Assembly: GCA_016712285.1 (NCBI GenBank)
Contig: JADJRK010000001.1
Span: forward strand, 2,821,188 to 2,885,187
DNA: 64,000 bases
Reading direction: 5' to 3'
Source of the DNA: Planctomycetota bacterium
GTDB taxonomy: Bacteria; Planctomycetota; UBA8742; UBA2392
The position numbers and the translations under genes were made by a program. How positions within the stretch are numbered: the first letter of the stretch is position 1; every line of letters begins with the position of its first letter. Positions 4,020 through 42,800 of the stretch are shown in pieces. The notes under the pieces are model-generated. The model made no database searches and was not told the origin of the DNA. It saw only the letters and a list, made by a program, of their open reading frames with translations.

Positions 4020-4248
4020 TGCGGTGGTCAGTCAGGTTGCGGGCGGGCGATAAACCCGACTGATTCACCTTACCTTATTAAACGACTGGTTGGTTGCTTG
4101 TCATTCCCGAAGCGCACAAACACTCCAAATTCTTGCGAACTCACGAAGCTACTCACCTCACACCACCTTCCAAGGCCTCTTTGTGTTTGCGGTTACGCGC
4201 AACCTGCATACCCTTGAAGTGTTCCATTGCCTCTACTGAGGAGTCGCT

Positions 4249-5814: not shown

Positions 5815-5827
5815 CTGCCGTTCGCTC

Positions 5828-5862
5828 ACAGACCCCCGCGCTATGCGGGGGTCTCTGTTTTT
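5828..5862. terminator. bidirectional rho-independent terminator between convergent genes
   Basis: Hairpin agaccccc-gcgctatgc-gggggtct followed by ctgttttt; the stop codon of the minus-strand DMT gene (5841-5843) sits inside the loop. Confidence 0.6.
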
Positions 5863-6827: not shown

Positions 6828-6885
6828 GGGTGGCAGAAGCGTAGACGCGCAATGCAATCACGCAATGCCAATCGCGCGCTGCCCT

Positions 6886-8655
6886 TTATGCCGACAGACG
6901 CTCGAGCTCGGATTCGACTGCCTCGACCAGCGGCTTGAGCGTTTCCGCGTCCATGCCAAAGCGCAGGCCGGCCGCCTTGAACAGGTCGCGCAACCCGCGC
7001 GAGCCGCCAAGGCTGAGGGCGTGGCGATACTTCGCCAGCGTGCCGACGGTGTCTTTGCGCGAGTGCAGCCACACCTGCAACGCGCCAATCTGCGCAATCG
7101 CGTACTCAATGAAATAGAACGGCGCCCAGAAGAAGTGGCCGATGTTGGTCCAGCGCGCGTCGCGGAACTTTTCCAGCCCGGTCCACTCGGTGCCCGCGTT
7201 GAAGCGCTGCGCCTGCGCGCGCCACTGCGCCGTCACGGCGTCGGCGCCTGCACCGGCATGGGTGTAGATCCAGTGCTGGAACTGGTCGCCCTGCGCGATC
7301 ATCACCAGCACCTCCAGCGTGCGTTCCAGTTGTTCTGCTTGCGCACGCTTGATGTCGGCCGGCGCATAGAACTCGTTGACGTGCGGCATGCCCAGCAATT
7401 CCATCGACATGCTGGCCACTTCGCAGAATTCCATGGGCGCGTGGCGATAGGCAAACAACGGCTGGTCAGCCGCCGCGAACGCGTGAAAGGCGTGGCCGCC
7501 TTCGTGCAGCAGCGTGCGCACGTCAGAGTCCAGGCCCACGGCGTTCATGAAGATGAACGGCAGGCGCGCCTCGCACAGTGTGCTCTGGTAGCCGCCGGGG
7601 GCCTTGCCCTCACGGTTGGCAAGGTCAAGCAGCCCCAGCTCGCGCATGCGGTCGAACTGGTTGCCGAGTGCCGGGTCAATGCGGTGGAAGATGCGCGAGC
7701 ACCCAAGCTTGAGCTGCTCCACGTCGTCAAAGGGCTTCAGCGGCGGCTTGCCGGTTGTGTCAACGTCAAGGTCCCACGGCCGCAACGACGGCAGGCCCAG
7801 CGCTTCGCCGCGCCGCTGCTGCATGCGCCGGACGGCCGGCAGCACGACCTGCTCTACGCCATGGGCAAACACGTCGCAATCGTCGGGCGTGTAGTCGAAG
7901 CGCAGATAGCTCTGCCACGTATAATCCCGAAAGTCGGCGCAGCCGGCATTGCGCGCGATCTGCTCGCGCAGCCGCAACTGGCCCTCGAACAGCCGTCCCA
8001 GGCCCTCATGCTCGGCCAAGAGCCGCTCGTTGCCCGCCCTCCAGGCCCTTTCGCGCAGGCTTCGGTCCTGCTCAAGCCCGAACTTTGCCATCTGCACGGG
8101 CGTGTAGCGGCTGCCCTCGAAGTCGATGGTGACCGCGCCCTGGACCTCGTCGAACTGCTTGGTGAGCTTGGCAAGCTCGGTCTGCAGCGGGATGTTCTCG
8201 GGCCGGTACAGCGCAAGCTGGGCCAGCACCGCGCGCTCGTAAACGGCGTATCGTGCGGGGTCAAGGGCGCTGCGCGCGGGGGCTGCCTGGAACTTGCGGT
8301 CCAGCGCGTCGATCGCCTGCTTCAGTTGCGGCTCGAACTTCTCGACCCAGTCCAGAAAGACCTGCTTGTTCTCTTCGCTGGCGGTATCCAGCGTGGTGCG
8401 AATGTGAATGCGCGCGCCGACTTCGTTGATGACCGCCGCGAGTTCACTGCTGTCGCGCATCCATTGTTCCAGCGCGTCGGCGTCGGCAAGGTCCGCGTCG
8501 ATCAAGCGCTGGAACAGCGGGGCTACGTCCTCATAGGCGCGCACGACCAGGCCTTGCGGCACAAAGCTGCGCGGGTAATTGCGGGGCAAGGCTTCGAGGG
8601 TGTCAGTCACAATGGCCTCCGTTGCCAGAATAACGCACCGGGGCCAAGGGGCCAT
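6886..8655 (-). CDS. M3-family oligoendopeptidase (PepF-like)
   Basis: 589-aa ORF containing the zinc motif HEGGHAFH and M3B-like architecture; the 715-aa + strand ORF 6712..8859 is its antisense shadow. Confidence 0.8.
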   Translation of the reverse strand: MAPWPRCVILATEAIVTDTLEALPRNYPRSFVPQGLVVRAYEDVAPLFQRLIDADLADADALEQWMRDSSELAAVINEVGARIHIRTTLDTASEENKQVFLDWVEKFEPQLKQAIDALDRKFQAAPARSALDPARYAVYERAVLAQLALYRPENIPLQTELAKLTKQFDEVQGAVTIDFEGSRYTPVQMAKFGLEQDRSLRERAWRAGNERLLAEHEGLGRLFEGQLRLREQIARNAGCADFRDYTWQSYLRFDYTPDDCDVFAHGVEQVVLPAVRRMQQRRGEALGLPSLRPWDLDVDTTGKPPLKPFDDVEQLKLGCSRIFHRIDPALGNQFDRMRELGLLDLANREGKAPGGYQSTLCEARLPFIFMNAVGLDSDVRTLLHEGGHAFHAFAAADQPLFAYRHAPMEFCEVASMSMELLGMPHVNEFYAPADIKRAQAEQLERTLEVLVMIAQGDQFQHWIYTHAGAGADAVTAQWRAQAQRFNAGTEWTGLEKFRDARWTNIGHFFWAPFYFIEYAIAQIGALQVWLHSRKDTVGTLAKYRHALSLGGSRGLRDLFKAAGLRFGMDAETLKPLVEAVESELERLSA

Positions 8656-10899: not shown

Positions 10900-12354
10900 A
10901 TGAAAGCTGAATGCCTTGAAGCCATTGACGCCGCGAAATCGCTGGGCGCGAACTATGCCGACGTGCGGGTGATTGAGTATCGCCGCGAAGGCGTCGCCCT
11001 GCGCAACGGCCACCCGTGCAACCTTGCCAGCGGCCAGTCCTTCGGCGCGGGCATTCGCGTCATCGTCAACGGGGCATGGGGCTTCGCCAGCACCAACCAG
11101 GTCACAGCCGCCAGCCTGAAAGCCACGTCTGCGCGGGCGGTCGAGATCGCCAAAGCCAGCGCACAGGTCAAGAAGCAGGACGTGCGCCTTGCCCCGAAGC
11201 CGCCGGTCGAAGACATCTGGTGCACGCCCTTCACCATCGACCCGTTCAAGGTGCCGCTGGAACAGAAGCTGGGCCTGCTGTTGCAGATCGACACCATCCT
11301 GCGCAAGAACCCCGCGGTGAAAGTCGCCAGCGCCGCGATGCAGTTCGCGCGCGAGAAGCAGTGGTACATGGACACCGACGGCAGCTTTATCGTGCAAGAC
11401 CTGCTGCGCAGCGGCGCCGGCTACAGCGCGACCGCGGTCGGCAACGGCGAGGTGCAGATTCGCTCATACCCGCAGTCATGGGGCGGCAACCACAAGTGCA
11501 TGGGCTATGAAATCGTGCACGCCTATGACCTGCTGGGCAACGCCGAGCGCATACGCGACGAAGCGGTGGCACTGCTCACTGCGCCCGCGTGCCCGTCCGG
11601 CCGCATGGACCTGATTCTGGACGGCCCGCAGCTTGCCCTGCAGATTCACGAAAGCGTCGGCCACGCCAACGAGCTCGACCGCGTGTTCGGCTATGAAGCC
11701 AACTACGCCGGCCGCAGCTTCATGCTGCCCGAGCTGCACAACCGCAAAGGCGGGTTCAAGTACGGCAGCCCGATCGTGAACCTGGTGGCCGATTGCACGG
11801 TGCCCGGCGGGTTGGCGACGATCGGCTACGACGACGATGGTGTGCGCGCGCAGCGCTTTCACGTGGTGCAGAACGGCATCCACAACGAGTGGTTCACCAC
11901 GCGTGAAACCGCGCCGCTGGTGGACCGCGAGGTTTCAAACGGCTGTAACCGGGCGGAGGGATTCAACAACATCCCGATCACGCGCATCCCGAATTTGAGC
12001 CTGATGCCGGGCGAGTGGGAGTACGACGCGCTGATCGCGGACACGAAAGACGGCATCATCATGGAAGTGAACAAGAGCTGGAGCATCGACCAGATGCGCC
12101 TGAACTTCCAGTTCGGGGCCGAGATCGGCCGCGTGATCAAGGACGGCAAGATCACGGGCATCGTGAAGAACCCGAACTACCAGGGCAACACGCCCGAGTT
12201 CTGGGGCGCCTGCGACGCCATCTGCAACCAGGACCACTGGGACCTGTGGGGAGTCATCAACTGCGGCAAAGGCCAACCCGGCCAAACAGCCGAGATGTCC
12301 CACGGCGGAGCACCAACAAGGTTCCGGGGTGTCGAGGTGGGGATTAGGGGATAG
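10900..12354 (+). CDS. TldD/PmbA-family metalloprotease
   Basis: Track ORF 10714..12354; family-like sequence from MKAECLEAIDAAK onward with the HESVGH region and glycine-rich C-terminus; ATG at 10900 preceded by GGAG. Confidence 0.8.
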   Translation: MKAECLEAIDAAKSLGANYADVRVIEYRREGVALRNGHPCNLASGQSFGAGIRVIVNGAWGFASTNQVTAASLKATSARAVEIAKASAQVKKQDVRLAPKPPVEDIWCTPFTIDPFKVPLEQKLGLLLQIDTILRKNPAVKVASAAMQFAREKQWYMDTDGSFIVQDLLRSGAGYSATAVGNGEVQIRSYPQSWGGNHKCMGYEIVHAYDLLGNAERIRDEAVALLTAPACPSGRMDLILDGPQLALQIHESVGHANELDRVFGYEANYAGRSFMLPELHNRKGGFKYGSPIVNLVADCTVPGGLATIGYDDDGVRAQRFHVVQNGIHNEWFTTRETAPLVDREVSNGCNRAEGFNNIPITRIPNLSLMPGEWEYDALIADTKDGIIMEVNKSWSIDQMRLNFQFGAEIGRVIKDGKITGIVKNPNYQGNTPEFWGACDAICNQDHWDLWGVINCGKGQPGQTAEMSHGGAPTRFRGVEVGIRG

Positions 12355-12826
12355 GCGTAGTGCCCTCAGCACCGGGCGGCAGTCGGAAATCAAAAGGGCC
12401 GTGAAGTTTGATCACGGCCGCTTGCACCTTGGATTGGAGTTCCTTGCATTTCTTGGTGCCCTTGATCGCGGCGTTGAGTTCTGGAATCAGCGCATGTCCT
12501 GGGTTGTCTGGGAGAGGATCGGCCGTCGCACTCAATCCCGTCTCGTGCAGTTTCGATATGCTGATTTCCGCGACACAGAACTGACCGGGTGCCTTGCCCT
12601 GCCTTGTTAACTCGTCAAAGCGCCGCTTGGCCACATCTTCGGGTTTGACGTACTTCTCTCGATCTGCAGACAGGCCAGTCGCGTCCCCTGGAGATGGCTC
12701 AAAGGCCTGGCGCTCCGCCCTTCCCTTTTCAGGGTCGCACCAGCCTGGGCGAACTGGCACCGCCCTAAGCAAGGTCTCCCTTGTTGAATCCACTGGATCT
12801 ACAGGTTCGATAGACGCCCCTGACAT
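12344..12826 (-). CDS. hypothetical protein (island gene 3 of 3)
   Basis: 160-aa ORF whose ATG lies immediately after the stop of the upstream gene (12829-12831); GC lower than neighbours; no recognisable motif; 3' end overlaps the convergent TldD gene by about 10 nt. Confidence 0.45.
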   Translation of the reverse strand: MSGASIEPVDPVDSTRETLLRAVPVRPGWCDPEKGRAERQAFEPSPGDATGLSADREKYVKPEDVAKRRFDELTRQGKAPGQFCVAEISISKLHETGLSATADPLPDNPGHALIPELNAAIKGTKKCKELQSKVQAAVIKLHGPFDFRLPPGAEGTTPIP

Positions 12827-12828
12827 TC

Positions 12829-13296
12829 TTAGCTCGAATGCAGGCGGCTGTACGACTTGTACAAGATCACGTTTCCTTGAAGGAATCCTGTCAACTCTGC
12901 AGAACCACTGGGATTGAACTGCAGTTCGATCTCTCCTTTAGGTGACTGGAACTCCCAATGGAATGCGATGCCACCGTCCACCGTTGGAATCACTCGGTCA
13001 GGCGGCGTGTCGTGTTGTTTTTTGGAGTCCATTGCAAATCGGCACGCAAGGCTCAAGGCGTTCTTACTAATGGACGCCAGGCCATCAGATTCGAACTGTG
13101 ACGGACTACGTCCCCACTCGACAAGCTTCTGATTGATCATTCGAGACCAACTTTCCTTCCACGCCTCCGGTGAACCCAGAATGCTAGCCTGTCCCAAATC
13201 GGTTTCGCAGGCCGTCGTCAGTACGAATTTAGATTGCGTGTCCGGTGCACCGAATACACTCTCAAGCCGTTCAGCGACTTCTCGCATTTCGATCAT
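12829..13296 (-). CDS. hypothetical protein (island gene 2 of 3)
   Basis: 155-aa ORF in a clearly low-GC stretch; start overlaps the upstream stop as ATGA (13293-13296); no recognisable motif. Confidence 0.55.
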   Translation of the reverse strand: MIEMREVAERLESVFGAPDTQSKFVLTTACETDLGQASILGSPEAWKESWSRMINQKLVEWGRSPSQFESDGLASISKNALSLACRFAMDSKKQHDTPPDRVIPTVDGGIAFHWEFQSPKGEIELQFNPSGSAELTGFLQGNVILYKSYSRLHSS

Positions 13297-14114
13297 CTCT
13301 TCATCCTCCAGTAGCTCAGCGCCTCGTCAGATGACATCGAACGGAATCCGGTGACTATTGCTTTTCGGCCTTCCAGCAGCCCCAATCGGATGTCATCGAG
13401 CGATCCATTCCCCGCCATCGGGCCCCTTGCCGTCAAGTTCAGCTCAAGCGAATCCGGGTCACGCTGCCTTCGTGGGTGTACATGGCGTACTCGAACATGA
13501 AGGCGTCCCTCTTTCTCGCCAATGCGGAAATGCCACTCGCCTCCCAAGTTTTCCAATTTCATATTCGGCAGGTCGGATCGGACTCCTGGCAACGACTGAT
13601 TCAGCAGGTTTGCCCAGTCCTTAGGCTCATTCCAAACTGATCCACGTGGGATAAGGTTCAGGTATGTCACCTCCCACTGATTCGCCTTTGGGGCCCCAAG
13701 CCCCATCCCCGAACAGAAGTCTACGAACGCTTGCCACCGTGCTTCAAACTGCGTCAAGCATGCCTCAAACCGGGGATACTGTTTCCCGTCCATTCCCAGC
13801 CAGTTCGAGTGAAGACGACCGTTTTGAAGCTGTACCATCCATTGGTTCGCCTTGTGTATAAACTGGCACCGACCGTCATTTGGCTTGTTGATGTTGACTC
13901 TCAATTGGACAAACATCTGCTCCATCTCGTCGAATGTTTCGAACTGGTCCGGAAGCGCTGTTTGTTCACGCACTGTGGGCCAGTCTTCACCGAGCTGACG
14001 CCAAAAGGCCCCCATGTGAGCAACTGTCCACTTTTCAAGTGGCTCGAACTGAACCCCAAGAACGGTCTCAACTACCGGCGGGTTCTCGAAGTCTGGTAAC
14101 TGGGTCTCGCTCAT
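13293..14114 (-). CDS. hypothetical protein (island gene 1 of 3; N-terminus reminiscent of the TIGR04255 family, unverified)
   Basis: 273-aa ORF in low-GC DNA (about 52-55% by eye); N-terminal FENPPVVETVLGVQFEP resembles, from memory only, the conserved N-terminus of TIGR04255-type proteins. Confidence 0.6.
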   Translation of the reverse strand: MSETQLPDFENPPVVETVLGVQFEPLEKWTVAHMGAFWRQLGEDWPTVREQTALPDQFETFDEMEQMFVQLRVNINKPNDGRCQFIHKANQWMVQLQNGRLHSNWLGMDGKQYPRFEACLTQFEARWQAFVDFCSGMGLGAPKANQWEVTYLNLIPRGSVWNEPKDWANLLNQSLPGVRSDLPNMKLENLGGEWHFRIGEKEGRLHVRVRHVHPRRQRDPDSLELNLTARGPMAGNGSLDDIRLGLLEGRKAIVTGFRSMSSDEALSYWRMKR

Positions 14115-14596
14115 TTCTTGTCTGAATCCGTGTTGGAACTACCTAGGAAAACAACGCCTCCAAGTGAACGAAGAATCCCTCGCCATCAGACTCTACCAAT
14201 GACACATTTCTTTGTGTCCGCCAAATCGTGTGCCGCAAATTGCTTGCTGGCAAAGACATACGACAAGTATGGTGTGTCAGTAACTTTTCGTCAAGTAGCG
14301 CTCCGCGTCGGGTTCGCCGCCATTCAAGTCCCGTCAGTGACAACGAGGGTGGCATGCGCGTCTCGCGCTTGCCGCAGTTCTTGACGGCCGCCATCGGCGG
14401 GACGCCGCTTAGGCTGGCTCAGGGCGGGCCGATGCCACTTTGGCTTGTGCTAGTTGCGTGGTTTCAGAGTCTTGTCGATGAAGCGCTGGATTGCGGCCTT
14501 TACTTCGGGGGCGCGCCATTGGTCGGCTACTTTTTTGTTGTGGTTGGTGAGGGCTTGTACGGCCTGCATTGTGGGGGTGGCGCGCGTTTACGCTGT

Positions 14597-14679
14597 CGCC
14601 CCTGGCGGGGCTTTGGGTCTTTCCGGGCGGTTTACCGGTGGCTTCCGCCACCGGCTATTGGCGGCCGCCCCTGCGGGGC
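14597..14679. repeat. cluster of GC-rich REP-like hairpins next to the IS200-like transposase gene
   Basis: Three short palindromes read from sequence: gcccc-tggc-ggggc, ccggtggc-ttcc-gccaccgg, ccgcccc-tgc-ggggcgg. Confidence 0.45.
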
Positions 14680-14708
14680 GGTACTGCCCTGGCGACATCG
14701 ACGGGCGG

Positions 14709-15239
14709 TCATTCCCGATCGTTTGCCTCGTGGGCGCCGCCGCTTGGCGTGGTGCCCGGTGGCGGCACACCTTCTGAATCGCGCTCGGGCGAAGCTGGGG
14801 GCGCGTCGGGCTCGTCTGTCAGGCCGTGCAGTTCTTTGAACTTGTTCAACTCTTCGGCGAGCGTTTGTTTCTTGTGGTGCTCGGCTTGGTTCTGGATGTA
14901 CTTCTTTGCCTTCTCAATGTGTGAGATGCTGACCGAAAACACGCCGTAGCCTTCCTGCCAGCCGAATTCGTGCCTGGGCCAGGTTTCGTGAATCCACTTT
15001 GACGTGTTAGATTTGATGTCGCGCAGCACGTCTGAAACTGCGTGACGTGGCGCGAACCCGATCAGCAGGTGGGTGTGGTCCTCCACTCCGCCACCTTCGA
15101 GCAATACGCAATCTCGCTTTCGCAGGATGCCGCCAACGTACGGGTAGAGACGTGCGGCGATTTCGGGGACGATCAGCGGTCGCCGATCCTTGCAGGCGAA
15201 GATGGCGTGCAGCGTGACGCTGTGGTACGTGCTTCCCAT
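14709..15239 (-). CDS. IS200/IS605-family Y1 (HuH) transposase, TnpA/RAYT-like
   Basis: Track ORF 14709..15356; HuH motif (EDHTHLLIG), conserved downstream SKW and GYGVFSVS segments, EHHKKQT tail; ATG at 15239 (MGSTYH). A P/G-rich C-terminal tail of about 35 aa is atypical. Confidence 0.7.
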   Translation of the reverse strand: MGSTYHSVTLHAIFACKDRRPLIVPEIAARLYPYVGGILRKRDCVLLEGGGVEDHTHLLIGFAPRHAVSDVLRDIKSNTSKWIHETWPRHEFGWQEGYGVFSVSISHIEKAKKYIQNQAEHHKKQTLAEELNKFKELHGLTDEPDAPPASPERDSEGVPPPGTTPSGGAHEANDRE

Positions 15240-15333
15240 GCACGCACAATAACCGACGTCGCCGGATCTGTCGCCTTTGGAAGGGCTCGGTTCGTGCTTG
15301 TTGCGATGCGGGCGACTTGCTTTCTTGGCGGCT

Positions 15334-15891
15334 ATGCCCGACGCGCATTCTGTCAACCTGCCGGTTCTCCGCCGCCGCTACGCCGACGTGCGGGCCATGT
15401 TGGCGGCTGTGCGCGGGCTGCTGGAAAAGCTGGACTTTGAGGAAATGAAAAAGTCGACCAAGCCGTCGGGACGCAATCTCTGGGAATCGCTTTCGTTCTG
15501 GCTTTGCTACCGCGGGCCCTTCCTGAACATTGTCGAGGGCGTGCCGCACGCCACGTCAGGCGTCATCAATGCCCCGCGCGGCTACACGCTGGAACAGGCA
15601 TGGCAGGCATGGGACGAATCTGTCGCGCGTGCCGACCGGATCATGGCGACGTTTTCTGTCGAGCGCTGGAACACGGACGTGGACTTCTGGATTGACCGTG
15701 AGAAGACGCGCCGCATGAAGGCATGGGAGGTCTTTCTTGCTCACTTCGCCGACCGCCTCGAACACGACTGGCGGATGATGCTTGAGGACATCTGCACCGT
15801 GGGCCACCAGAAGTGGCTGGAAAGCCTGATCGGCGAAGACTGGTACTACTTCCGCGAAGGCGAGAGCCTCAAGGACGTCTACCCGCAGTAG
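15334..15891 (+). CDS. hypothetical protein
   Basis: Track ORF 15277..15891; start taken at ATG 15334 (MPDAHSV); Trp/His-rich helical protein with no secure family assignment. Confidence 0.5.
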   Translation: MPDAHSVNLPVLRRRYADVRAMLAAVRGLLEKLDFEEMKKSTKPSGRNLWESLSFWLCYRGPFLNIVEGVPHATSGVINAPRGYTLEQAWQAWDESVARADRIMATFSVERWNTDVDFWIDREKTRRMKAWEVFLAHFADRLEHDWRMMLEDICTVGHQKWLESLIGEDWYYFREGESLKDVYPQ

Positions 15892-15933
15892 GCGCGCGCC
15901 GCAGATTCGAGGCGGGCGATGCAAGCATCGCCC

Positions 15934-16569
15934 CTACTTCAGCAGCTTGTATGCGTGGGTCCAGACTCCGTGCTTGAAGCCGTAGGCTACCCACGTCATG
16001 CACATCGCCTCCAGGTACCTTGAGCCTTCGATGCCGCCGATGTCGGCTGTCTCCCAGCCGAATTCTTTGAGCAGGCCTTCGGTCTTCTTCTTGGCGGCTT
16101 CGTCGTTGCCGGCAATGAACATGGTCGGCGGGCCGCCGGCCAGTTTTGGCTTGAACATCAGCGCATTGCCCACGGTGTTGAAGACTTTGACGACGCTCGC
16201 TCCCGGCGCGGCTTTCTGGATGTGCTCGCCTAAACTGTCATGGCCGACGATGGAAAGGCGTGGCCCGCCAGTGCTGAAGTCGAGCGGGTTGGTGGCGTCC
16301 CACAGGATCTTGCCCTTGAGCTCGGCCGACGAACCCTTGACGATTTCTTCGCTGACATTGCCGAGCGTGCACAGGGCCACGATCTCGCCGAATTTCGCGG
16401 CATCGTTGAACGTGCCTTCGCTCGCCTTGCCGCCAGCCGACTCAACCCAGGCTTTCGCCTTGGCGTTGCCCGCAGTGCGCGAGCCCATTTTCACTTCATG
16501 GCCCAGCGCGATGAACCCGTTGCCCAGGGCCTTGCCGACGTCGCCGGTGCCGAGAATGCCGATCTTCAT
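15934..16569 (-). CDS. NAD(P)-binding oxidoreductase (NADPH-dependent F420 reductase-like)
   Basis: N-terminal Rossmann motif MKIGILGTGDVGKALG and overall similarity to the NpdG/F420-dependent NADP reductase fold. Confidence 0.6.
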   Translation of the reverse strand: MKIGILGTGDVGKALGNGFIALGHEVKMGSRTAGNAKAKAWVESAGGKASEGTFNDAAKFGEIVALCTLGNVSEEIVKGSSAELKGKILWDATNPLDFSTGGPRLSIVGHDSLGEHIQKAAPGASVVKVFNTVGNALMFKPKLAGGPPTMFIAGNDEAAKKKTEGLLKEFGWETADIGGIEGSRYLEAMCMTWVAYGFKHGVWTHAYKLLK

Positions 16570-16659
16570 GGTGATCTCCGTTATCCCGCCAGAGTGTAGC
16601 GTTCCCTGAAATCAAGCCAACGCCACGGCCTGCTGCCGCCTTCCCGGCTTTTCGGCTCT

Positions 16660-17928
16660 CTACTCGGTGCGGCGCAAGGTCTTGAAACTGATGCCCAGTA
16701 CCCCGCACAACGCGCCGCATAGGCCGCCCCAGAAAAACAACTCGCGCGGCTCCAGCCATTGCAGCGCCAGCCCCGTCGCCAGCGCGCTGAGCGCCGTGAA
16801 GCCCTGCACGGTAATGGCAACCAGCGCAAAGATGCGCCCCAGGCGCTCGCGCGGGTAGTGCCGCTGGATCAGCGTGGCGCGCCCGACCGTGATCAGCGGA
16901 ATGCTCAAGCCGTGCACGAAAATCGCCACCAGGAAAGTCTCGAACGTCTGCAGCCACAAGAACGGCACATACGTAACGCCATCCAGCAACATCCCCCAGA
17001 TCACAAGCCGCCCGGTGCGCAGCTTGCGGCCAAAGCGCGCCAGCAGCAGCGTGCCGACAAGCCAGCCCGCGCCCAGGCAGGCTTCGAACACGCCATAGGC
17101 CCAGATCTCGAGGCCGAGCGTTCCCTTGATCAGGAACATCGCGCCGACAATCGCGGGGCCCATGATGAAGAAGTTGTCGACGGCGGTCAGAAAAAGCAGC
17201 GAGCGCAGACGCGCGTCACGCCAGGCCGTGCTCAGGCTTTCGCGCAGCTCGGACAGCGAACTGGGCCGCACGCCGGCTTGCGCCAGGGTCTTGCGCGGGG
17301 TGCGAATCAGCAGAATGCACGCAAAGCTGACCAGAAAGCTGCCAGCGTCGGCAACCAGCAGCCACGCGATGCCGTCGGCCCCGGCGCGCTCGCCGGCGAT
17401 CGCGGGCGCCAGCAGAATGCCCACCAGCCCGGCACCCAGGATCACGGCGAGTTGCTGGCTCGTCTGGAAGATGCTGTTCACGCGCAGCAGGTTGGCGCCC
17501 TCGGCCAAGTCAGGGATCAACGCGTCGCGGGCGGGGTTGAACAGAGTGGCAAAGCCGTAGCTGGCAAAGGCGACTACCGGCAGCAGCCACCAGTCCAGCC
17601 AACCCAGGAAGTGCAGCAGCGGAATCGCACCGACAATCAGCGCCCGGGCGATGTCAGAAAGCAGCATCGCGCCACGCCGCGAGAAGCGGTCCACCAGCAC
17701 GCCCGCGTAGGCACCGAACAGCAGAAAGGGCAGCGCATCCATCATGCGCGTCAAGCCAACCTGCGTCTCAGAGTGCGGCCCGACCAGGTAGATCACAAAG
17801 AAGCCGACCGACACCGAGAACACCGAGTCACCAGTGCCCGAAACAAACTGCCCCACCCAAAGCAGGAACAGGTTGCGCGTGCGGCGAGAGGCCACTGGCG
17901 CGGCAGTCTGGGCGACGGGCTGATTCAT
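16660..17928 (-). CDS. MFS transporter
   Basis: About 12 predicted TM helices with MFS-like loop motifs; start taken at ATG 17928 (MNQPVAQ); the + ORF 16759..17943 is an antisense shadow. Confidence 0.75.
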   Translation of the reverse strand: MNQPVAQTAAPVASRRTRNLFLLWVGQFVSGTGDSVFSVSVGFFVIYLVGPHSETQVGLTRMMDALPFLLFGAYAGVLVDRFSRRGAMLLSDIARALIVGAIPLLHFLGWLDWWLLPVVAFASYGFATLFNPARDALIPDLAEGANLLRVNSIFQTSQQLAVILGAGLVGILLAPAIAGERAGADGIAWLLVADAGSFLVSFACILLIRTPRKTLAQAGVRPSSLSELRESLSTAWRDARLRSLLFLTAVDNFFIMGPAIVGAMFLIKGTLGLEIWAYGVFEACLGAGWLVGTLLLARFGRKLRTGRLVIWGMLLDGVTYVPFLWLQTFETFLVAIFVHGLSIPLITVGRATLIQRHYPRERLGRIFALVAITVQGFTALSALATGLALQWLEPRELFFWGGLCGALCGVLGISFKTLRRTE

Positions 17929-18000
17929 GGGTGCGGAGTCTAGCCCGGGCCACCTGCGTTGTCCTTGCCGCCCGTGCGGCATTCGCTAGCCTTGCGCGCC

Positions 18001-18582
18001 ATGGCTGGAAACATGGAACAGGCACGGTTGGCGTTTGTCGGCATGGTCGATGACCTCTACCAGCGCGGCGCCACCGGCCGCACCGTCATCGCCCTTGAGC
18101 TGGCGCAGGAACTGCTGGCTGCGGCCTTTGAATCAGCGGCCACGGGGCAGGACGAAGCCGAGATCACCAACGTGCGGCTTGACCTGTTTGAAGACGCAGG
18201 CTTGTTCTCGTGCAACATCAAGGTCAAGGGCAAGGCCTGGCCGCCGCGCCCGCCCGTCGATACGCGCGTTGAACTGGGAGTGCGCGACGTGACGCACAGC
18301 GAAGCCGGCGAATCCGGCAGCGTGATGTTCCGGGTTGAAAAACCGCTGCATTTCTCCAGCACATTCGCCGACATGCTGATCGGCCTGCTGGGAAAAATCG
18401 TGCGCAAGCTGCCCGTGAGCATCGACGCGCTGCGCCACAAAGACGCGCTGGTCACCATTGATTTTGCGCAGTTCGTGAAGGCATTCCGGCCCGAGCTTGG
18501 CGCGCACGCCCGGCAGGTGCGGCTGTACGCGTTGAAGGTTTCGGCCGGCAAGGCCAAGGTCGAGATCGGCTTTCTCAAGTAA
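18001..18582 (+). CDS. hypothetical protein
   Basis: Track ORF 17959..18582; plausible coding composition, no motif recognised; start uncertain (ATG at 18001 or 18013). Confidence 0.45.
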   Translation: MAGNMEQARLAFVGMVDDLYQRGATGRTVIALELAQELLAAAFESAATGQDEAEITNVRLDLFEDAGLFSCNIKVKGKAWPPRPPVDTRVELGVRDVTHSEAGESGSVMFRVEKPLHFSSTFADMLIGLLGKIVRKLPVSIDALRHKDALVTIDFAQFVKAFRPELGAHARQVRLYALKVSAGKAKVEIGFLK

Positions 18583-18591
18583 CGCCTGCCC

Positions 18592-19564
18592 ATGGAATAC
18601 GTGCTCATAGCGGTGCAGCTTGCCTTTGGCGTCCTGGGCCTTCACTTCGGGGCGAACTGGCTTGTTTCGGGCTCAAGCAAGCTGGCGCTGACGTTTGGCA
18701 TCAAGCCGCTGATCATCGGCCTGACCGTGGTGGCGATGGGCACCAGCGCGCCGGAGTTGACAGTAAGCCTGGGGGGCGCGTTCCAGGGAAAGACCGACCT
18801 TGCCGTGGGCAACGTGGTTGGCAGTAACATCGCCAACATCGGGTTGATCCTTGGGTTGTCAGCGGCAATCCGGCCGATGAAGATCCAGATTGAGCCGCTG
18901 AAGCGTGACCTGCCGTTCATGCTGTTTGCGGCGCTGTTGCTGGCTGGTTTGCCGTTCATCGGCGGGCCGGTCGAGACTGAAAACGGCGTCGCCTTCATGA
19001 TGGACCGCTGGAAGGGCGGCGTGCTGCTGGGCGCGATGGCGCTGTTCATGTGGCTGGCCTTTCGGGGGCGCGCGCGGCGGCGGCGAAGGCGAAACGCTGG
19101 AAAAACCCAAGGGCCGCGCCATGTTCATCGTGCTGACGCTGGTCGGCCTGGGCGTGCTGTTGATCGGCGGCACACTGTTCGTGGATGGCGCCGTAAGTTC
19201 CGCGAAGTTACTGGGCATTCCGGAGCTCGTGATCGGGCTGACGGTAGTCGCCGTCGGCACCAGCCTGCCTGAGCTTGCCACCGGGGTGATCGCGACGATC
19301 AAGGGCGAAAGCGACATCAGCCTGGGCAATGTCGTGGGCAGCAACATTTTCAACGTGTGCCTGGTGCTTGGGCTGGTGGCGGTGATTCACCCGCTGGCGA
19401 TTGACGTGCGCGTCATGCAGCTCGACATGATCGTGATGCTGTTTTTCAGCCTGTGGGTCACCAGCATGGCCTGGCGCGGCAAAGACCTTTCGCGCCTCGA
19501 GGGCATCTCGTTGCTGGGGGCCTACGTGCTGTACGTGGTCAACCTTTTCTTCGGCTGGGTGTGA
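18592..19564 (+). pseudogene. Na+/Ca2+ exchanger (CaCA/YrbG family) interrupted by a +1 frameshift at a C-G5 run near 19063-19068
   Basis: Track ORFs 18592..19272 and 19121..19564 each carry one CaCA alpha-repeat (GTSAPELTVS...GNVVGSNIANIGLILG and GTSLPELATG...GNVVGSNIFNVCLVLG); frame 1 degenerates into an Arg-rich tail after MWLAF while frame 2 continues as GGARGGGEGETLEKPKGRAMFIV. Confidence 0.65.
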
Positions 19565-19630
19565 GATTTGACGTAACATAAGGCCGGCCAGCCGCGTAGA
19601 GTCTGAAACGGACTTCTGTAGGAGGTTGCC

Positions 19631-21019
19631 ATGCGCTCATCGGGCTGGATTTTCGGGCTGTTGCTGATGATTCTCGCCTGCGGTTTGTCGTTCGGCGCAG
19701 GGTACTTCATCGCCAAGCAGGACGTGCCGCCCCCCGCACCGCAGATCGAAACCGCTGAGCTTACGCCGGCTGAAGCACAGCCCGGGCGCGACAAGGTCGT
19801 ACTGCCGCTCACGAACCAGCCCTCAATAGACCAACCCGAAGACACCGGCAACCTCAAGCCAGGGCCGGGCACGGATTCATCGACTGGCCAACCCGGCACC
19901 AAGCCGGACCAGCCACCCGTCGAAGCCGGTTCCAAGCCGGAAAGCACCAAACCAGCCGGCGACCCCAAGACCGCCGCAGAGGCCGCCGAGGCGATCAAAG
20001 AACTCGAGAAGAAGCTGAAAGAACTCGAGGGCCGCGACATTTTCGACCCAGAGGCCATGCTGAACGGCCCCAAAGTTGACTTCACGGCCACGATCACCGG
20101 CTCAGTCAGCGACACCGCCGGGCAGCCGGTCGCGGGCGCCGGCATCTATGGCGAATTCAGTGAAAACTACGGTGGCGGCGGCAACGTACTGCGCGTTTCG
20201 ATTGGCGGCGACGGCCAGGACGTCGGCGACCTGCTGACGACCACGGACTCGGGCGGGACCTTCCGCATCGACATCAACCGCAAGGTCAACGAAAAGGCCG
20301 GGCTGCACGTGGACTTGACGGCCAAGTCACAGGGCTACGCCGACAGCAAGACCATCGGCGTGTCGCTCAAGAATGGCGACACCAAGGAAGGCATCAAGCT
20401 GGCGCTGCGACAGGCCGGCAGCGTGGCTGGACGAGTGGTGGACCAGTCGGGCGCCGGTGTCGCCGGCATGCAGGTCAGCCTGGGCAGCGGAAGCCAGATG
20501 GGCGACCTGGGCCTTGAGATTGAAATGGGGGGCGCGGGCAGCAAGCTTTCCGCCACCACCGATGGCTCCGGCGAATATCGCATCGAGAACGTGCCCGAGG
20601 GCGACTATCGCCTGAAGTTGCGCGGTGCGGGCTACCGCGAAGTCAGCGGCCCCGCACAAATCAAGGTCAAGGCCGGCGCCGAAACCCGCGCAGCCGCCGA
20701 CTTCGTGGTCGCCATTACTTGCAGCGTGCGGCTGGTGGTGCAGGACGCGTCTGGGCAGCCGCTGCGGGCGTGGGTCACGCTCAACTTCAAGGATGCCGAG
20801 GGCAAGAGCGTCAAGAAGCTCAACGGCATGACTGACAGCGACGGCAATTTCAGCGCCAACGAGCCCCCAGTCGGCAACTTCAACGTCGAGGTGGCGGCCT
20901 GGGGCTACAAGCCTGAAACGGTGCCCGCCAACGTCATGGAAGGCCTGGCCTGCGACCTCGGGCGCCTGACACTGCAACCGTCTGAGACTAAGCCGGGGCC
21001 AGGCGACTCCGGCGAGTAA
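19631..21019 (+). CDS. membrane-anchored protein with carboxypeptidase-regulatory-like beta-sandwich domains
   Basis: N-terminal TM anchor, Pro/Gly-rich linker, then repeats of the GxVxDxxGxPVAGAxV type. Confidence 0.55.
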   Translation: MRSSGWIFGLLLMILACGLSFGAGYFIAKQDVPPPAPQIETAELTPAEAQPGRDKVVLPLTNQPSIDQPEDTGNLKPGPGTDSSTGQPGTKPDQPPVEAGSKPESTKPAGDPKTAAEAAEAIKELEKKLKELEGRDIFDPEAMLNGPKVDFTATITGSVSDTAGQPVAGAGIYGEFSENYGGGGNVLRVSIGGDGQDVGDLLTTTDSGGTFRIDINRKVNEKAGLHVDLTAKSQGYADSKTIGVSLKNGDTKEGIKLALRQAGSVAGRVVDQSGAGVAGMQVSLGSGSQMGDLGLEIEMGGAGSKLSATTDGSGEYRIENVPEGDYRLKLRGAGYREVSGPAQIKVKAGAETRAAADFVVAITCSVRLVVQDASGQPLRAWVTLNFKDAEGKSVKKLNGMTDSDGNFSANEPPVGNFNVEVAAWGYKPETVPANVMEGLACDLGRLTLQPSETKPGPGDSGE

Positions 21020-21093
21020 GTGATTTTTGTGGTTTCGAAGGAACCCTCGCCCCGGCTGTGGCATCCTATGGGCAGTCGCTACCGGAGGATGCC

Positions 21094-22341
21094 ATGTCTG
21101 TTTCGCGTCTCGTGTTGCCCGCGCTGGCCCTGACATCGTTGATCGCATCCGCCGTGGTGGCCACGGCCCAGGATCGCGCAGAAGCGGAGTTTCCTCGCCC
21201 TCGAGTAAAGGAAGCCGCCCGAGAAGAAACTGACCCGGCACGCAAGGTCGCACCGGTCACGCTGAAGGTGTACGAGTGGGGCGTAGCCACCGAGAACTGG
21301 GACGGCAGCGCCGAGCCGCCGGAAGACGTGCCGGTGTTCTATTGGCAGGCGGAACAGATCCCGCTTGAGCCCGCGCCGGCCAAACCGCAGCCGCAGGACA
21401 AGCCCGTCCGGCCCATCACCAAACGCAAGCCCGTGCTGTACTTTGAATGCACACAGGACCTTACGTTTGACCTCGACATCAGGTTCACGTGCGGCGTGCC
21501 GACGTGGCACTATCCAAAGGCAAACCGCCGTACCGACGCAGCCACTTTGCAGTGGGACAACATCAAGTTGACCAGCGACCTGACGCCGCGGGACAAGTCG
21601 CTGCCGCCGCCGAAACTCCGCGAAGTTGCTGACCGGCACTGGGCCAACTTCAGTCGCGAAGGCTCGACCAGCTATCTTGAAGTGAACGGCGAAGCCGAGC
21701 GCTTTCTGTTCTACGAAGGCAGCGCCTCGTACCTGCCCGAGTCAGACGTGTTCGTGAAAGACGGCAAGCTGGTGGTGCGCAACTTCACCGCCGAGCCGTT
21801 TCTGGACCTGCGCGTGTGCGTCAAGCTTGAGGGCAAGGTCGTGCGCCTGCACGCCGACAATGTCCCCGCGGCATCGGGCGACACGCCGGGCGAAGTCACG
21901 CTGGACCCCGCGGCCAGCGTTGCCACCTTCGGGCCCGCGGGCACGCTGACCACGGAAACCGGCAAGGCTGGACTCACCGAGGCGCAGGCCAAGGTGTTCG
22001 AGCGCTGCTGGAACACAGAGCTGCTTGAGCAAGAGGGCACCCTTTCATGGCGTCGCACGGGCAAAGCGCTGGACGACCTGATGCAGCTCAAGCTCACGCT
22101 GCCGGCTGGCATTGCCAGCGAAACGCACCGCGTCGGCTACGTGCAGGTGCGTGGTGTTGATCTTGCCAAGATCGCAGACTACGACGCGCTCGTGACCAGC
22201 TATCTGGGCGGCGACGACGAGACCCTGAAGAAGCTGAAGGGAACAGCCGGCGCTGGTGCGCTACGCCGCGCCATGCTCGACACAGAACGGCCGCTGAAAG
22301 ACCGCATCACCTTGGCCAAGGCGTTGAGTCTCATCAAGTAG
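21094..22341 (+). CDS. secreted hypothetical protein
   Basis: Track ORF 21058..22341; ATG 21094 preceded by GGAGGA; signal peptide MSVSRLVLPALALTSLIASAVVATAQ; no motif recognised. Confidence 0.55.
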   Translation: MSVSRLVLPALALTSLIASAVVATAQDRAEAEFPRPRVKEAAREETDPARKVAPVTLKVYEWGVATENWDGSAEPPEDVPVFYWQAEQIPLEPAPAKPQPQDKPVRPITKRKPVLYFECTQDLTFDLDIRFTCGVPTWHYPKANRRTDAATLQWDNIKLTSDLTPRDKSLPPPKLREVADRHWANFSREGSTSYLEVNGEAERFLFYEGSASYLPESDVFVKDGKLVVRNFTAEPFLDLRVCVKLEGKVVRLHADNVPAASGDTPGEVTLDPAASVATFGPAGTLTTETGKAGLTEAQAKVFERCWNTELLEQEGTLSWRRTGKALDDLMQLKLTLPAGIASETHRVGYVQVRGVDLAKIADYDALVTSYLGGDDETLKKLKGTAGAGALRRAMLDTERPLKDRITLAKALSLIK

Positions 22342-22391
22342 GGCACAACATTGTCGGACCATGACGTCCAGCGCCGCATGCGGCACGGAGG

Positions 22392-23420
22392 TTATGTTGG
22401 CCCTGTGTTCGATTGCGCTCGTTTCAGCCACCTTCTGATGAACGCAGGCGCGGCTGCCAGTTTCTCTGCGTTGTCCGGCGGCAGGGGCGCGCTGCTTTTT
22501 GTGCACCAGAACAGCTTGGGCCCGGGCAGGTCGATGAAGTCCAGCAGCGCCGCGCCCGACTTGGCGGCGTACGTCGTGTCCAGCGGCGGTGCCGAAAGCT
22601 CGCGAAACTTCGCGGCAGCCAGCAGACCGGCCCTGGTGATGCGGGCGTAGCCCCAGCCGAAGTAACGGGTGTGCAGGCGCAGCCGGCTTGGGTCAATCTC
22701 GACGGTCGGGCCGCCTCGCGCCGGTATCTCGCGGGCCGTGGCCCGGGCCAGCCGCAGAATCATGCCGCGAGAGGTAATCGGCCACGGCGTCACCCGCACA
22801 GCATGCACGAGCGGAAGCGACCACGGCCACGCCTCAACCTTGCGCGCCAATGCCAGGCCGGTAAGCAAGCCGGCAGTAGTACAGGTGCTGCCCACAGCCA
22901 GCACGATGTGCGCCGGCGGCGGCATCTTTCCCGCGTGCACCTGCTCGGCCAGTTCCAGAGCGGCGCCGACGTGACCCAGCGCGCCCAGGGGCACGGCACC
23001 GCCGGGGGTGATCAGGTACTCGGCTGCGTGGGCACGGCTTCGCGCCCACCAGTGCGCCGGAAAGGTGGCAATGCTGCGCAGGGGAACTACTCGGTCACCG
23101 TGGCTGATGATGGCGCGAAGATTCTCGGCGGCGGCGGCTGTGGCGCGCTGCGGGAACAACACCGTGCCCGTGGCCAGGGGCAGCTCGCGCGCATGCAGGA
23201 TCAGTGCCAGTGCCTGGTTGCTGCCGAAGGCGCCCAGGGTCCACACGCGTTTAGCCTTGCGCGCCAGTGCGTCTGCGACCAGCGTCTCGAGCGTGCGCAG
23301 CTTGTTGCCGCCGTACAGCGGCGAGCTTGCATCTTCGCGTTTCAGCCAGACATCTCCCAGGGCGGGCAGCGGCTCAACGGCAGTGGGATAGTCGCCCAGG
23401 CGAACGTGTGGCACGTCCAT
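22392..23420 (-). CDS. PLP-dependent enzyme of the ACC deaminase / D-cysteine desulfhydrase family
   Basis: Track ORF 22392..23564; family-like N-terminus from ATG 23420 (PTAVEPLP...WLKREDASSPLYGGNKLRTLE) with SN and glycine-rich PLP-fold motifs. Confidence 0.7.
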   Translation of the reverse strand: MDVPHVRLGDYPTAVEPLPALGDVWLKREDASSPLYGGNKLRTLETLVADALARKAKRVWTLGAFGSNQALALILHARELPLATGTVLFPQRATAAAAENLRAIISHGDRVVPLRSIATFPAHWWARSRAHAAEYLITPGGAVPLGALGHVGAALELAEQVHAGKMPPPAHIVLAVGSTCTTAGLLTGLALARKVEAWPWSLPLVHAVRVTPWPITSRGMILRLARATAREIPARGGPTVEIDPSRLRLHTRYFGWGYARITRAGLLAAAKFRELSAPPLDTTYAAKSGAALLDFIDLPGPKLFWCTKSSAPLPPDNAEKLAAAPAFIRRWLKRAQSNTGPT

Positions 23421-23500
23421 GTTGGGCAGTGTGCGCAGCAGCGCAAACTCGTGGGGCAGGGCAATACAGGCTTCATTGCCGAGTTCGTGGCCGGCTTCGT

Positions 23501-23818
23501 TCACCAGCCCATCATGCCAATCATCCAGACAAGCGCACCGCACAGTGCGGGCACCGCCAGCCACGACGCCAGCAGGTAGTTTGGTGCCAGCGGGGTCTGG
23601 TGGCGGGCCAGCACCACGACGCGTTTCCCGCGGCGGTACTCCACCGGCTCAGGGTAGGGCCGGACGCTGCCAGCCGGCGGGAGGTTCAGCAGCAGTTCGT
23701 CGCTTGGGCGGCGTATCGGCCCGCCCTTGGCAACGCGCGGCGCGCGGGCCACGAAGTAGCCCTGGAACGTATCCAAGTCCGACGAGTCGGCTGGCATGTC
23801 GAGGAAGCAATACGCCAT
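23501..23818 (-). CDS. small hypothetical protein with C-terminal TM helix (doubtful)
   Basis: Part of track ORF 23501..23863 from ATG 23818 (MAYCFLD); hydrophobic C-terminus; could be a non-coding divergent promoter region instead. Confidence 0.3.
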   Translation of the reverse strand: MAYCFLDMPADSSDLDTFQGYFVARAPRVAKGGPIRRPSDELLLNLPPAGSVRPYPEPVEYRRGKRVVVLARHQTPLAPNYLLASWLAVPALCGALVWMIGMMGW

Positions 23819-23951
23819 TAGTGACCTCAACCCCAGTTTCCCACATGAAGTCCCCGCCGCCAAATGGATTCGCGTTGGAACATGAACAGTGTTCAGCCCT
23901 TACGAATCTGACGCTATCATGGGCCGATCGATTGGCAGAAACGAGGGCGTG

Positions 23952-24440
23952 ATGTCGGCGGAATTGACTCTTCTGTTTCTAGAAAAGCGCGTGGAAGCCT
24001 CGCGGCTTTGCGCCTCTATCACCGAACCGTTTGCCACGGGCAGCGAGCCCGTGAAGCCGCAGCAACTGGCCGATGACTACGAACAGGTCTGCCAGGAGCT
24101 TGAGGGCACCTACGAAGACCTCAAGAAGCTCAACGACGGCTTGCTGAAAGACAAGACGCTGGAAGCGGGCGACATTCGGCATCTGCGTGGGCGCATTGCC
24201 ACGGCAGTGACTGAGGTGGCGCGTGCCGCGCAGGATATGGCGGCGCAGATCAGGTTTTTCGAAGCCATGAACCCCAACGATGCCGCGACCACCAAGCCCG
24301 CGCTGGACCACTTTGACCGCATCGATAAGTCTACGCGCGAATTCACGGTACCCGACGAGCCCGAAGACGGAGCCGAGCTGGCCCCCGCCGAAGACACCGG
24401 CATGGCCCACGAAGAAGACGTCGACCCGATGATGATGTAG
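23952..24440 (+). CDS. hypothetical protein, acidic and helical (cassette gene 1)
   Basis: Track ORF 23889..24440; start at ATG 23952 (MSAELTL); first gene of a tightly packed four-gene + strand cassette. Confidence 0.45.
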   Translation: MSAELTLLFLEKRVEASRLCASITEPFATGSEPVKPQQLADDYEQVCQELEGTYEDLKKLNDGLLKDKTLEAGDIRHLRGRIATAVTEVARAAQDMAAQIRFFEAMNPNDAATTKPALDHFDRIDKSTREFTVPDEPEDGAELAPAEDTGMAHEEDVDPMMM

Positions 24441-24446
24441 GCGGTA

Positions 24447-24884
24447 ATGCGCATGATGGCACATCCCATAATCCAGGCGGTGCTTCTATGCGACGGTGCG
24501 TGGAAAGTCGGCGACAAGTGGACGATTCAGGGCATTTTCAATCGGATTACGAGCAAGGCATATCCATCGCTGTTTCCGAAGTTTTTCATCTATGTAAATC
24601 TTGTGGAGTTGATGATCCGGAACGGCACCAGTTTGGCGGTAGAGATCCGACATTCCTCACTGGAGGAGATTGAATCGCCATCGGGCCCGGTCTTTCGAGG
24701 CACCATGGACTTCTCCCTGGGCGGCGAGCCGGGTACAATGGTCGGGCCGGTGGGGTTTGATTTTGCAGTGCCGGTAGACGAAGTCGAGTTTCCCCACGCT
24801 GGCACCTATGACCTAGTGTTTCTTGCCGGAGACACGCTCTTAGGGTTATGGACTTTGCGGGCAGAAGTGGTGAAGCCAGAATGA
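24447..24884 (+). CDS. hypothetical protein (cassette gene 2)
   Basis: 145-aa ORF in the lowest-GC part of the cassette (about 54% by eye); stop overlaps the next start as ATGA (24881-24884). Confidence 0.5.
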   Translation: MRMMAHPIIQAVLLCDGAWKVGDKWTIQGIFNRITSKAYPSLFPKFFIYVNLVELMIRNGTSLAVEIRHSSLEEIESPSGPVFRGTMDFSLGGEPGTMVGPVGFDFAVPVDEVEFPHAGTYDLVFLAGDTLLGLWTLRAEVVKPE

Positions 24885-25138
24885 AGCCAAAGGAAGTCCA
24901 AGTATCTGAGGCTATCGCGACGCCGGCCTTTCATGCCCGTGTGGTTGTGACGGCTGAGTCCAACCCCGCGCGCGACGTTCTTTCAGCGGCCCAGCGCGCT
25001 GCGATACGGGTTGAGGCTGAGCGGCTTCTGCGCGAGAGAAACAATGCGCGCTTTCGCGCGCTGCGCGAGAGGGAAGAGTCGGAATCCGACCAGTCATCGT
25101 CACGCCTGTATCGCCGAGAGGCTCTGAACCTGGACTAA
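24881..25138 (+). CDS. small basic protein, candidate antitoxin (cassette gene 3)
   Basis: Part of track ORF 24848..25138 from ATG 24881; 85 aa, Arg-rich helical; ends 8 nt before the MazF/PemK-like ORF. Confidence 0.4.
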   Translation: MKPKEVQVSEAIATPAFHARVVVTAESNPARDVLSAAQRAAIRVEAERLLRERNNARFRALREREESESDQSSSRLYRREALNLD

Positions 25139-25146
25139 CACCTGCA

Positions 25147-25497
25147 ATGGCGCGACTTCGTAAGGGCGACGTAGTCTGGTTCAGCTTTCCCCGCGTAGTT
25201 CCGCCCGGAGCCGACGCTGCCACCAAGACCGAAGACATGCGTCCCGCACTGGTGCTGCAGACCATCGGTGTCAACGTAGTCGTCGGCATGCTCACCACCA
25301 AGGACTACACCGACCAAGGTGCGCTGAAACTTACCCCCGCCGACTATGCCGCTGGGGGATCCGACGAAGTCAGCTTTTTCCGCCCTGATCGCCTCTGGAC
25401 AGATCATGAAGATTGGGCGGAAAGCTGGGTAGGGCGTCTGCAAAGCCAGAAGCTGACGCAGTGCTACGACGCGATCGATCGCTTCCTCCGTTCCTGA
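25147..25497 (+). CDS. MazF/PemK-family toxin-like protein (cassette gene 4)
   Basis: 116 aa; RKGDVVWFSFP, RPALVLQ and a Thr/Lys-rich loop match the spacing of the PemK/MazF fold (compare GDVYFADL...RPVLVIQ in EndoA); family call from motif pattern only. Confidence 0.6.
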   Translation: MARLRKGDVVWFSFPRVVPPGADAATKTEDMRPALVLQTIGVNVVVGMLTTKDYTDQGALKLTPADYAAGGSDEVSFFRPDRLWTDHEDWAESWVGRLQSQKLTQCYDAIDRFLRS

Positions 25498-25554
25498 CTT
25501 TCCGACACGAATCCACATCGCCCGCGCTGGCGCTGCGGCTGCTATGTTCGCGCC

Positions 25555-26496
25555 ATGCCCAACTACTTCTCTCGAGCAAAAATCTATGTCGTCGGCCGGC
25601 AGGTGATGCCCCCCGACGAAGTGCAGCGCTTTCTGGATGACGAGGGCGCGCTTTGGCAGACCGACACCGACAACCCCGCCCAGCGCATCCCCGAGCTTGC
25701 GGGCCGCATCTGCTACATGAGCTTTGGCGACAAGCAGGGCCGCAAAGACAACGCCAGCTACCTCGGCCACATCCTGCAAGTCGGCCACGGCAGCGTCCTT
25801 GAGCACACCGTCTTCAGCCTGGTGTTCACCGGCATCTCGCGCAGCCTGACCCATGAGCTGATTCGCCACCGCGCCGGCTTTGGCTACAGCCAGCTTTCAC
25901 AGCGCTACGTCGATGAGTCTGAGGCCAACTTTATCGTGCCGCCGGCGCTGCAGGGTGACGCCGCGCTGGAAGCAAAGCTGCGCGAGTTCTGCGACGTCAG
26001 CCTGAAGGTCTACGGTGAGCTGACAGACGCGCTGGCCGAAAAATACGCGACGCCGCACGGGCTGGTGGACTTCGCCCTGCGGGAAGAGATGCTCACTGAG
26101 GGGGAAACCGGAAAGTTCTCGCTCAGTGAGCCCGTCGCGGGCCGCAACGCGCTCAGCGTTGACGCGTGGCGCAAGTTCGTCGCCGACGACGCCGATGCCG
26201 CCAAGGCCTTCAAGAAGCTGACCGTGCGTGCCCGCCGCAAGGCTGCGCGCGAAGCCGCCCGCGCCGTGCTGCCCAACGCCACCGAAACCAAGATCTTCGT
26301 GACCGGCAACGCGCGCGCCTGGCGCCACTTCATCGAGCTGCGCGGCGACATTCACGCCGAGGCCGAGATTCGCGCGCTGGCATGCGACGTCTGCCGCCTG
26401 CTGCTGAAAGAAGCACCGAACCTGTTCGGCGATTACGAAGTGGTCAAGCTCGGCGACGGCAGCGAACGCACGCGCACCAAGCACCGCAAGGTCTAA
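25555..26496 (+). CDS. thyX: FAD-dependent thymidylate synthase
   Basis: ThyX signature RHRxxxxxS (THELIRHRAGFGYSQLSQRY) and overall ThyX-like sequence. Confidence 0.85.
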   Translation: MPNYFSRAKIYVVGRQVMPPDEVQRFLDDEGALWQTDTDNPAQRIPELAGRICYMSFGDKQGRKDNASYLGHILQVGHGSVLEHTVFSLVFTGISRSLTHELIRHRAGFGYSQLSQRYVDESEANFIVPPALQGDAALEAKLREFCDVSLKVYGELTDALAEKYATPHGLVDFALREEMLTEGETGKFSLSEPVAGRNALSVDAWRKFVADDADAAKAFKKLTVRARRKAAREAARAVLPNATETKIFVTGNARAWRHFIELRGDIHAEAEIRALACDVCRLLLKEAPNLFGDYEVVKLGDGSERTRTKHRKV

Positions 26497-26695
26497 GAGG
26501 CTGATTCAAAAACCTCTCGCGGACCGGTTTGGGCGGGGCACTTCGCATCTCTGCGTCGCGCTCCCTGCGCCATATCACCAGGATATGGCTCAGTCGCGCG
26601 CCTTGATCTGCTCGCGCCGCGCTCCAAACCGGCCTCGCTCAGGGTTCTGAAACAGCCTCTAAGCGCGAAAACGTAATTTGGGCCTGCACATCGCC

Positions 26696-32606: not shown

Positions 32607-32665
32607 GGCTGCATTGTAACCGGCAGCGCGACATCGCGCATTCAGCGGCATTCGTTGGCTTTCGC

Positions 32666-34066: not shown

Positions 34067-34123
34067 GTCGTGGGTATAACCCCACGGGCGGGGCAGCGCT
34101 ATTCTGCGATGTTCAGGGAATGC

Positions 34124-42798: not shown

Positions 42799-42800
42799 GT

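Follow-up and report, generated by a model that had tools for sequence, protein, structure and literature searches.

An apparently split calcium/sodium antiporter gene in a planctomycete long-read assembly, and its very probable origin in a single homopolymer-length error

YrbG-type calcium/sodium antiporters of the CaCA superfamily (TIGR00367) follow a common plan: two Na_Ca_ex repeats (PF01699), with the motifs GTSxPE and GNVVGSN in both halves, and a short cytoplasmic loop rich in basic and acidic residues. The same two-repeat architecture, comprising 10 transmembrane (TM) segments, is found in the structures of the exchanger NCX_Mj from Methanocaldococcus jannaschii (MJ0091; PDB 3V5U, 5HXC and others).

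The locus described here also has to be compared with a technical phenomenon. Indels in homopolymer regions are the recognised residual error of polished Nanopore assemblies (PMC9262707). The source genome is such an assembly: the MAG Fred_18-Q3-R57-64_MAXAC.456 (JADJRK000000000; 3 contigs; p__Planctomycetota; c__UBA8742; o__UBA2392; Singleton et al. 2021, PMC8012365, Supplementary file 5) comes from a study in which Nanopore reads were assembled with CANU and polished with Racon, with two rounds of medaka (r941_flip213) and with one round of Racon using Illumina reads (PMC8012365). Both kinds of reads are on record for the Fredericia WWTP sample SAMN14825693, namely the Illumina run SRR11674035 and its ONT partner SRR11673978 (PMC11809585).

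The window, i.e. the whole stretch of 64,000 nucleotides that was analysed, contains two overlapping plus-strand ORFs of 226 and 147 residues at 18592-19564, in adjacent frames. Their features, and the evidence for each, are as follows (L012 is a short-read contig described below).

18592..19564, + strand: whole CaCA / YrbG-like calcium/sodium antiporter gene (TIGR00367, alignment with NCX_Mj, identity to the gene on L012).
18610..19062, + strand: first Na_Ca_ex repeat, TM1-5, with the alpha-1 motif GTSAPE ... GNVVGSN, residues 7-157 (PF01699).
19064..19068, + strand: G5 run, responsible for the frame change; the short-read assembly of the same population has G4 here (DNA alignment, Illumina contig).
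19069..19272, + strand: out-of-frame Arg-rich tail of 67 residues plus stop (protein alignment).
19121..19564, + strand: 147-residue ORF, the second Na_Ca_ex repeat, TM6-10, with the alpha-2 motif GTSLPE ... GNVVGSN (PF01699).

The frame break amounts to one base at the run CGGGGG, in which c19063 is followed by g19064-g19068, and the 30 bases from 19063 have a G+C content of 90%. The upstream ORF (18592..19272, +, 226 residues) is genuine antiporter sequence through ...FMWLAFR; it reads as a membrane protein up to ...GAMALFMWLAFR, after which comes GRARRRRRRNAGKTQGPRHVHRADAGRPGR..., and its Arg-rich tail, GRARRRRRRNAGKTQGPRHVHR..., continues to a stop codon at 19270-19272. With the Gly codon at the extra G counted as well, 68 residues are out of frame. 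Read one base later, the DNA of the tail (19069..19272) codes for the inter-repeat loop and the beginning of repeat 2. This second frame is open from 19001, reads ...GGARGGGEGETLEKPKGRAMFIVLTLVGLG... and ends with a stop codon at 19562-19564; its first start codon, the ATG at 19121, yields the 147-residue ORF.

A complete Na_Ca_ex domain is present in each ORF. In the 226-residue ORF, PF01699 covers residues 7-157 (profile 3-150/151, E 4.5e-33, Pfam), and in the 147-residue ORF it covers residues 3-143 (E 1.5e-32, Pfam); the break therefore falls exactly in the loop between the repeats. Apart from the extra G, both halves of the gene are free of further lesions. An earlier note, made from the DNA letters, had placed the two CaCA alpha-repeat halves in neighbouring frames, with the shift located at a C-G5 run, and had remarked that the N-terminal frame turns Arg-rich after MWLAF. 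The domain search, the switch point and the translation bear out this description.

When one G of the run is removed, there is a single ORF of 323 residues, or 972 bases including the stop codon, where the window holds 973. The repaired protein scores 242.8 bits against TIGR00367 ('calcium/sodium antiporter'; cut-off 179.65), and 235.5 bits against NF008005, the E. coli YrbG equivalog, for which the cut-off is 432; it is thus a member of the family, with orthology to YrbG not assured. In the repaired protein, as in the gene on L012, two PF01699 stretches lie in one polypeptide of 323 residues (E 2.2e-64), whereas in the window as written the two repeats fall in two ORFs. The alpha-repeat motifs are present in both halves as GTSxPE and GNxxGSN (GTSAPE/GNVVGSN in repeat 1, GTSLPE/GNVVGSN in repeat 2); they vary little or not at all among relatives, and in the structural alignment they coincide with their NCX_Mj counterparts. 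Against the NCX_Mj structures the repaired protein aligns end to end (query 10-321 to chain 9-302, E 3.9e-35), which puts the frameshift site in the loop between TM5 and TM6. On the strength of profiles and motifs, the assignment to the YrbG-type calcium/sodium antiporters of the CaCA superfamily is unambiguous, and exchange activity is predicted.

The most direct evidence on the origin of the extra base comes from short reads. An exact look-up of the neighbouring 462-residue protein (19631-21019) led to the Logan contig SRR11674035_123540 (L012), which derives from the Illumina run named above. L012 is 14,297 bases long and corresponds to window positions 12256-26553 with 0 mismatches and one gap; a Logan contig is a k-mer consensus, and the comparison is one of contig against contig. 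The gap lies at the G run, which is G5 in the window and G4 on the contig, and all sequence after it is identical. On L012 the antiporter is one gene of 323 residues (6337-7308), identical to the repaired protein. Two further contigs of SRR11674035 are 100% identical to window positions 797-7399 and 55226-60309. Taken together, the three Illumina contigs allow 25,985 bases of the window to be checked, and they show one indel and not a single substitution; these stretches contain 48 homopolymer runs of at least 5 bases, and the only one that differs is the G run at 19064-19068.

These observations bear on the explanations that the earlier note had listed. It had named a sequencing or assembly indel as one possibility, and had proposed that read data with one G fewer or more, restoring a single ORF, would mark an assembly error. 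The Illumina-derived contig from the same sample has one G fewer and a single ORF, and it agrees with the window throughout its 14,297 bases save this one G, which favours this option. With high confidence, the extra G can be regarded as a residual homopolymer-length error in the Nanopore R9.4.1 CANU assembly, from an organism that has G4 and one intact gene.

The polishing counts against the error reading: it made use of the very Illumina reads from which the contig derives, and G5 nevertheless persisted, as a real allele would. Homopolymer runs are natural hotspots for slippage mutations too, and it is conceivable that a subpopulation at Fredericia carries a slipped-strand insertion (G4 to G5) that inactivates the antiporter, either as a recent pseudogene or as a strain polymorphism. 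The long reads would then have taken the G5 allele and the short-read consensus the other; a minority G5 allele could be masked in a contig that is a k-mer consensus. Even so, this explanation is unlikely. The absence of substitutions in the 25,985 bases shared by the long- and short-read assemblies leaves no second strain in evidence; the sole difference is of the type that Nanopore R9.4.1 systematically produces; neither half of the gene has decayed; and all readable relatives, described below, are intact. The earlier suggestion of recent pseudogenisation is accordingly left unsupported, and would hold only with G5 as a minority allele. Were G5 a real minority allele, of which the short-read consensus would display the majority G4 only, it might act as a slippage-prone on/off switch for the antiporter, or might give rise to two half-transporters that still assemble; this is very doubtful.

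Relatives of the antiporter also locate the lesion. In a search of a collection of 5.8 billion proteins, the closest relatives (P0001-P0004) are 93-96% identical and 321-323 residues long, and many further matches at 60-73% identity have 318-338 residues. Complete matches are all about 310-340 residues long, and the shorter ones are located on short contigs. The sole match of 226 residues, P0051, is the window's own ORF, which departs from all relatives after AFRG in the protein alignment. Once one G is deleted, the loop of the window protein, AFRGARGGGEGE, equals that of the closest intact relative, P0001; the closest relative in the protein alignment has FMWLAFRGARGGGEGEVTEKPKGRA, which is the repaired reading. 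At the DNA level, the window has TTTCGGGGGCGCG where L001, the locus of a relative, has TTTCGGGGCGCG; one G has thus been inserted, and there is no further indel. Alignment to intact homologues (P0001, L001), a check suggested in the earlier note, places the indel at the run: with respect to P0001 and the Illumina contig, one inserted base shifts the downstream frame by +1.

The relatives also bear on the idea that the gene is genuinely expressed in two parts. Mammalian NCX1, when split into two halves in its cytoplasmic loop, can reconstitute activity. By analogy, the products of 226 and 147 residues could form a working exchanger, or the full-length protein could be restored by programmed +1 frameshifting of the ribosome at the G run. 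This would fit the presence of one complete Na_Ca_ex repeat in each ORF, with the break in the loop between them and an ATG just before repeat 2. The sequence of the same population in short reads, however, is one ORF without a frame change, and the antiporter matches in a single frame in 63 of the 63 readable relatives among species-representative genomes (genome_contigs; 64 loci in all, with the source genome not among them). The locus left out of this count, L023 (JAGQRI010000042.1, HKST-UBA88), is partly masked with N; its match in two frames spans 192 masked bases at 3154-3345 and gives no evidence of a frameshift. No relative with the antiporter as two adjacent genes was found among the 63 readable loci or among the nearest proteins, which have 321-324 residues, and the uniform length of the complete protein matches points in the same direction.

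The site itself is not conserved. L001 and L012 have G4 at this position, and L002, L006 and L008 lack a G run altogether (CGTGGC, CGCAAC). All five are free of a frame change; a conserved shift or recoding site was thus not found among them. In addition, G5 would be too short for transcriptional slippage, and appears to lack a stop or hungry-codon context. Natural gene splitting and programmed frameshifting were rejected on account of the unconserved site and the unbroken relatives, and two working halves or a recoded gene must be rated the least probable of the explanations. The syntenic relatives agree: they share a conserved gene order, consisting of an MFS transporter (-), a 189-residue protein, the antiporter and a 462-residue CarboxypepD_reg protein, and the antiporter is one gene in every syntenic relative compared. 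L006 and L008 have a different, DUF3037-like gene farther upstream.

The earlier note had further drawn attention to the second half's own ATG at 19121. The codon is indeed present and is the first start codon in its frame, but its role as a start does not stand. It sits 150 bases inside the upstream ORF and, judged from the alignment, encodes residue 177, an internal Met, rather than serving as a start: the position is variable, P0002 having M and the relatives P0001, P0003 and P0004 having L. With an ordinary M/L loop position in place of a start, and 0 split relatives among the 63 that are readable, the option of two genuine genes is left unsupported.

A homopolymer-length error would account for the locus in the following way. 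The organism would carry CGGGGC (G4) and express an ordinary calcium/sodium antiporter of the CaCA family, with 323 residues, 10 TM segments and both alpha-repeats intact. The G5 call would have arisen by Nanopore homopolymer miscalling and would have outlasted polishing with Racon, medaka and Illumina-Racon; its escape may be due to the stretch of 90% G+C, where the coverage or alignment quality of short reads may have been lower. The 226-residue ORF, the 147-residue ORF, the Arg-rich tail and the apparent start codon of the second half would then all be results of one miscalled base. The split is almost certainly an artefact of the assembly, in a long-read MAG that is otherwise well polished, and no real biological feature.

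The whole window was scanned for ORFs on the same strand, in different frames and with high GC3, whose ranges from stop to stop overlap. This ORF-overlap scan returned six further pairs.

23501-23899 and 22392-23648, same strand: overlapping ORF pair.
32666-34123 and 32064-32807, same strand: overlapping ORF pair.
42801-43268 and 41983-43014, same strand: overlapping ORF pair.
51356-53566 and 53502-55106, same strand: overlapping ORF pair.
55426-56868 and 56783-58045, same strand: overlapping ORF pair.
61009-61974 and 61884-63998, same strand: overlapping ORF pair.

All six were judged to be unrelated neighbours rather than broken genes, on the basis of their translations and of gene calls on the Illumina contigs. 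Combined GC3 and ORF-overlap scanning, which misses frameshifts that leave a fragment of fewer than 80 residues, found no other convincing broken gene in the window, in agreement with the low discrepancy rate against the Illumina contigs. The large adjacent same-strand ORFs at 51359-55106, of 735 and 527 residues and with no assigned family, overlap slightly in different frames and are judged from their translations to be separate genes.

Some further observations concern other parts of the window. At 12256-15240 (L012 1-2984) there are three minus-strand genes without a Pfam match; the G+C content is 0.56 at 12001-14000, compared with about 0.64 elsewhere, and a Y1_Tnp (IS200/IS605-type) transposase of 176 residues lies at about 14709-15239 (-). 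This segment, beside the antiporter neighbourhood, is a candidate for a small island of mobile or foreign DNA. Three other proteins of the window were matched exactly in the Fredericia Illumina assembly, unlike a 630-residue protein (39505-41397, -); its missing match could reflect a break between contigs, a start codon called elsewhere or a further residual error of the assembly in that gene. Exact look-ups of this protein and of the 226- and 147-residue ORFs returned no record in the gene-position index, from which the source genome is absent.

The significance of the finding is limited to quality control: the gene is to be read as one intact calcium/sodium antiporter of 323 residues. The window's 226-residue ORF is the nr entry MBK8207459.1 ('sodium:calcium antiporter'), which consists of a truncated first half and an out-of-frame, Arg-rich tail of 68 residues; the second half of 147 residues was absent from the searched protein collection by exact look-up, and protein sets derived from the annotation lack it likewise. 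Homology-based pipelines that rely on MBK8207459.1 would inherit its error. The route taken here, in which an exact look-up with the protein of a nearby gene can lead to an independent short-read contig of the same sample, is a cheap way of vetting frameshifts in long-read MAGs. Extrapolated from this single event, roughly one residual error per about 26 kb could mean errors of the order of 150 in the 4.1-Mb genome.

In comparison with known systems, the antiporter is a new, though unexceptional, representative of the YrbG-type CaCA family, with which it shares the two PF01699 repeats, the GTSxPE/GNVVGSN motifs in both halves and the short basic/acidic cytoplasmic loop. It differs from the E. 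coli YrbG equivalog in falling under the NF008005 cut-off, and its ion specificity is a prediction only. With NCX_Mj, a distant relative, it has the architecture of 10 TM segments and two repeats in common; the two proteins differ in the lengths of the inter-repeat loop and of the loop that precedes TM5. As regards the break itself, the locus resembles other residual homopolymer indels in Nanopore R9.4.1 assemblies, in that a one-base miscall in a G run breaks an ORF and Illumina data from the same sample disagree. Nothing sets it apart from them, although the run, with G5 called for a true G4, is a short one and the miscall survived one round of Illumina polishing.
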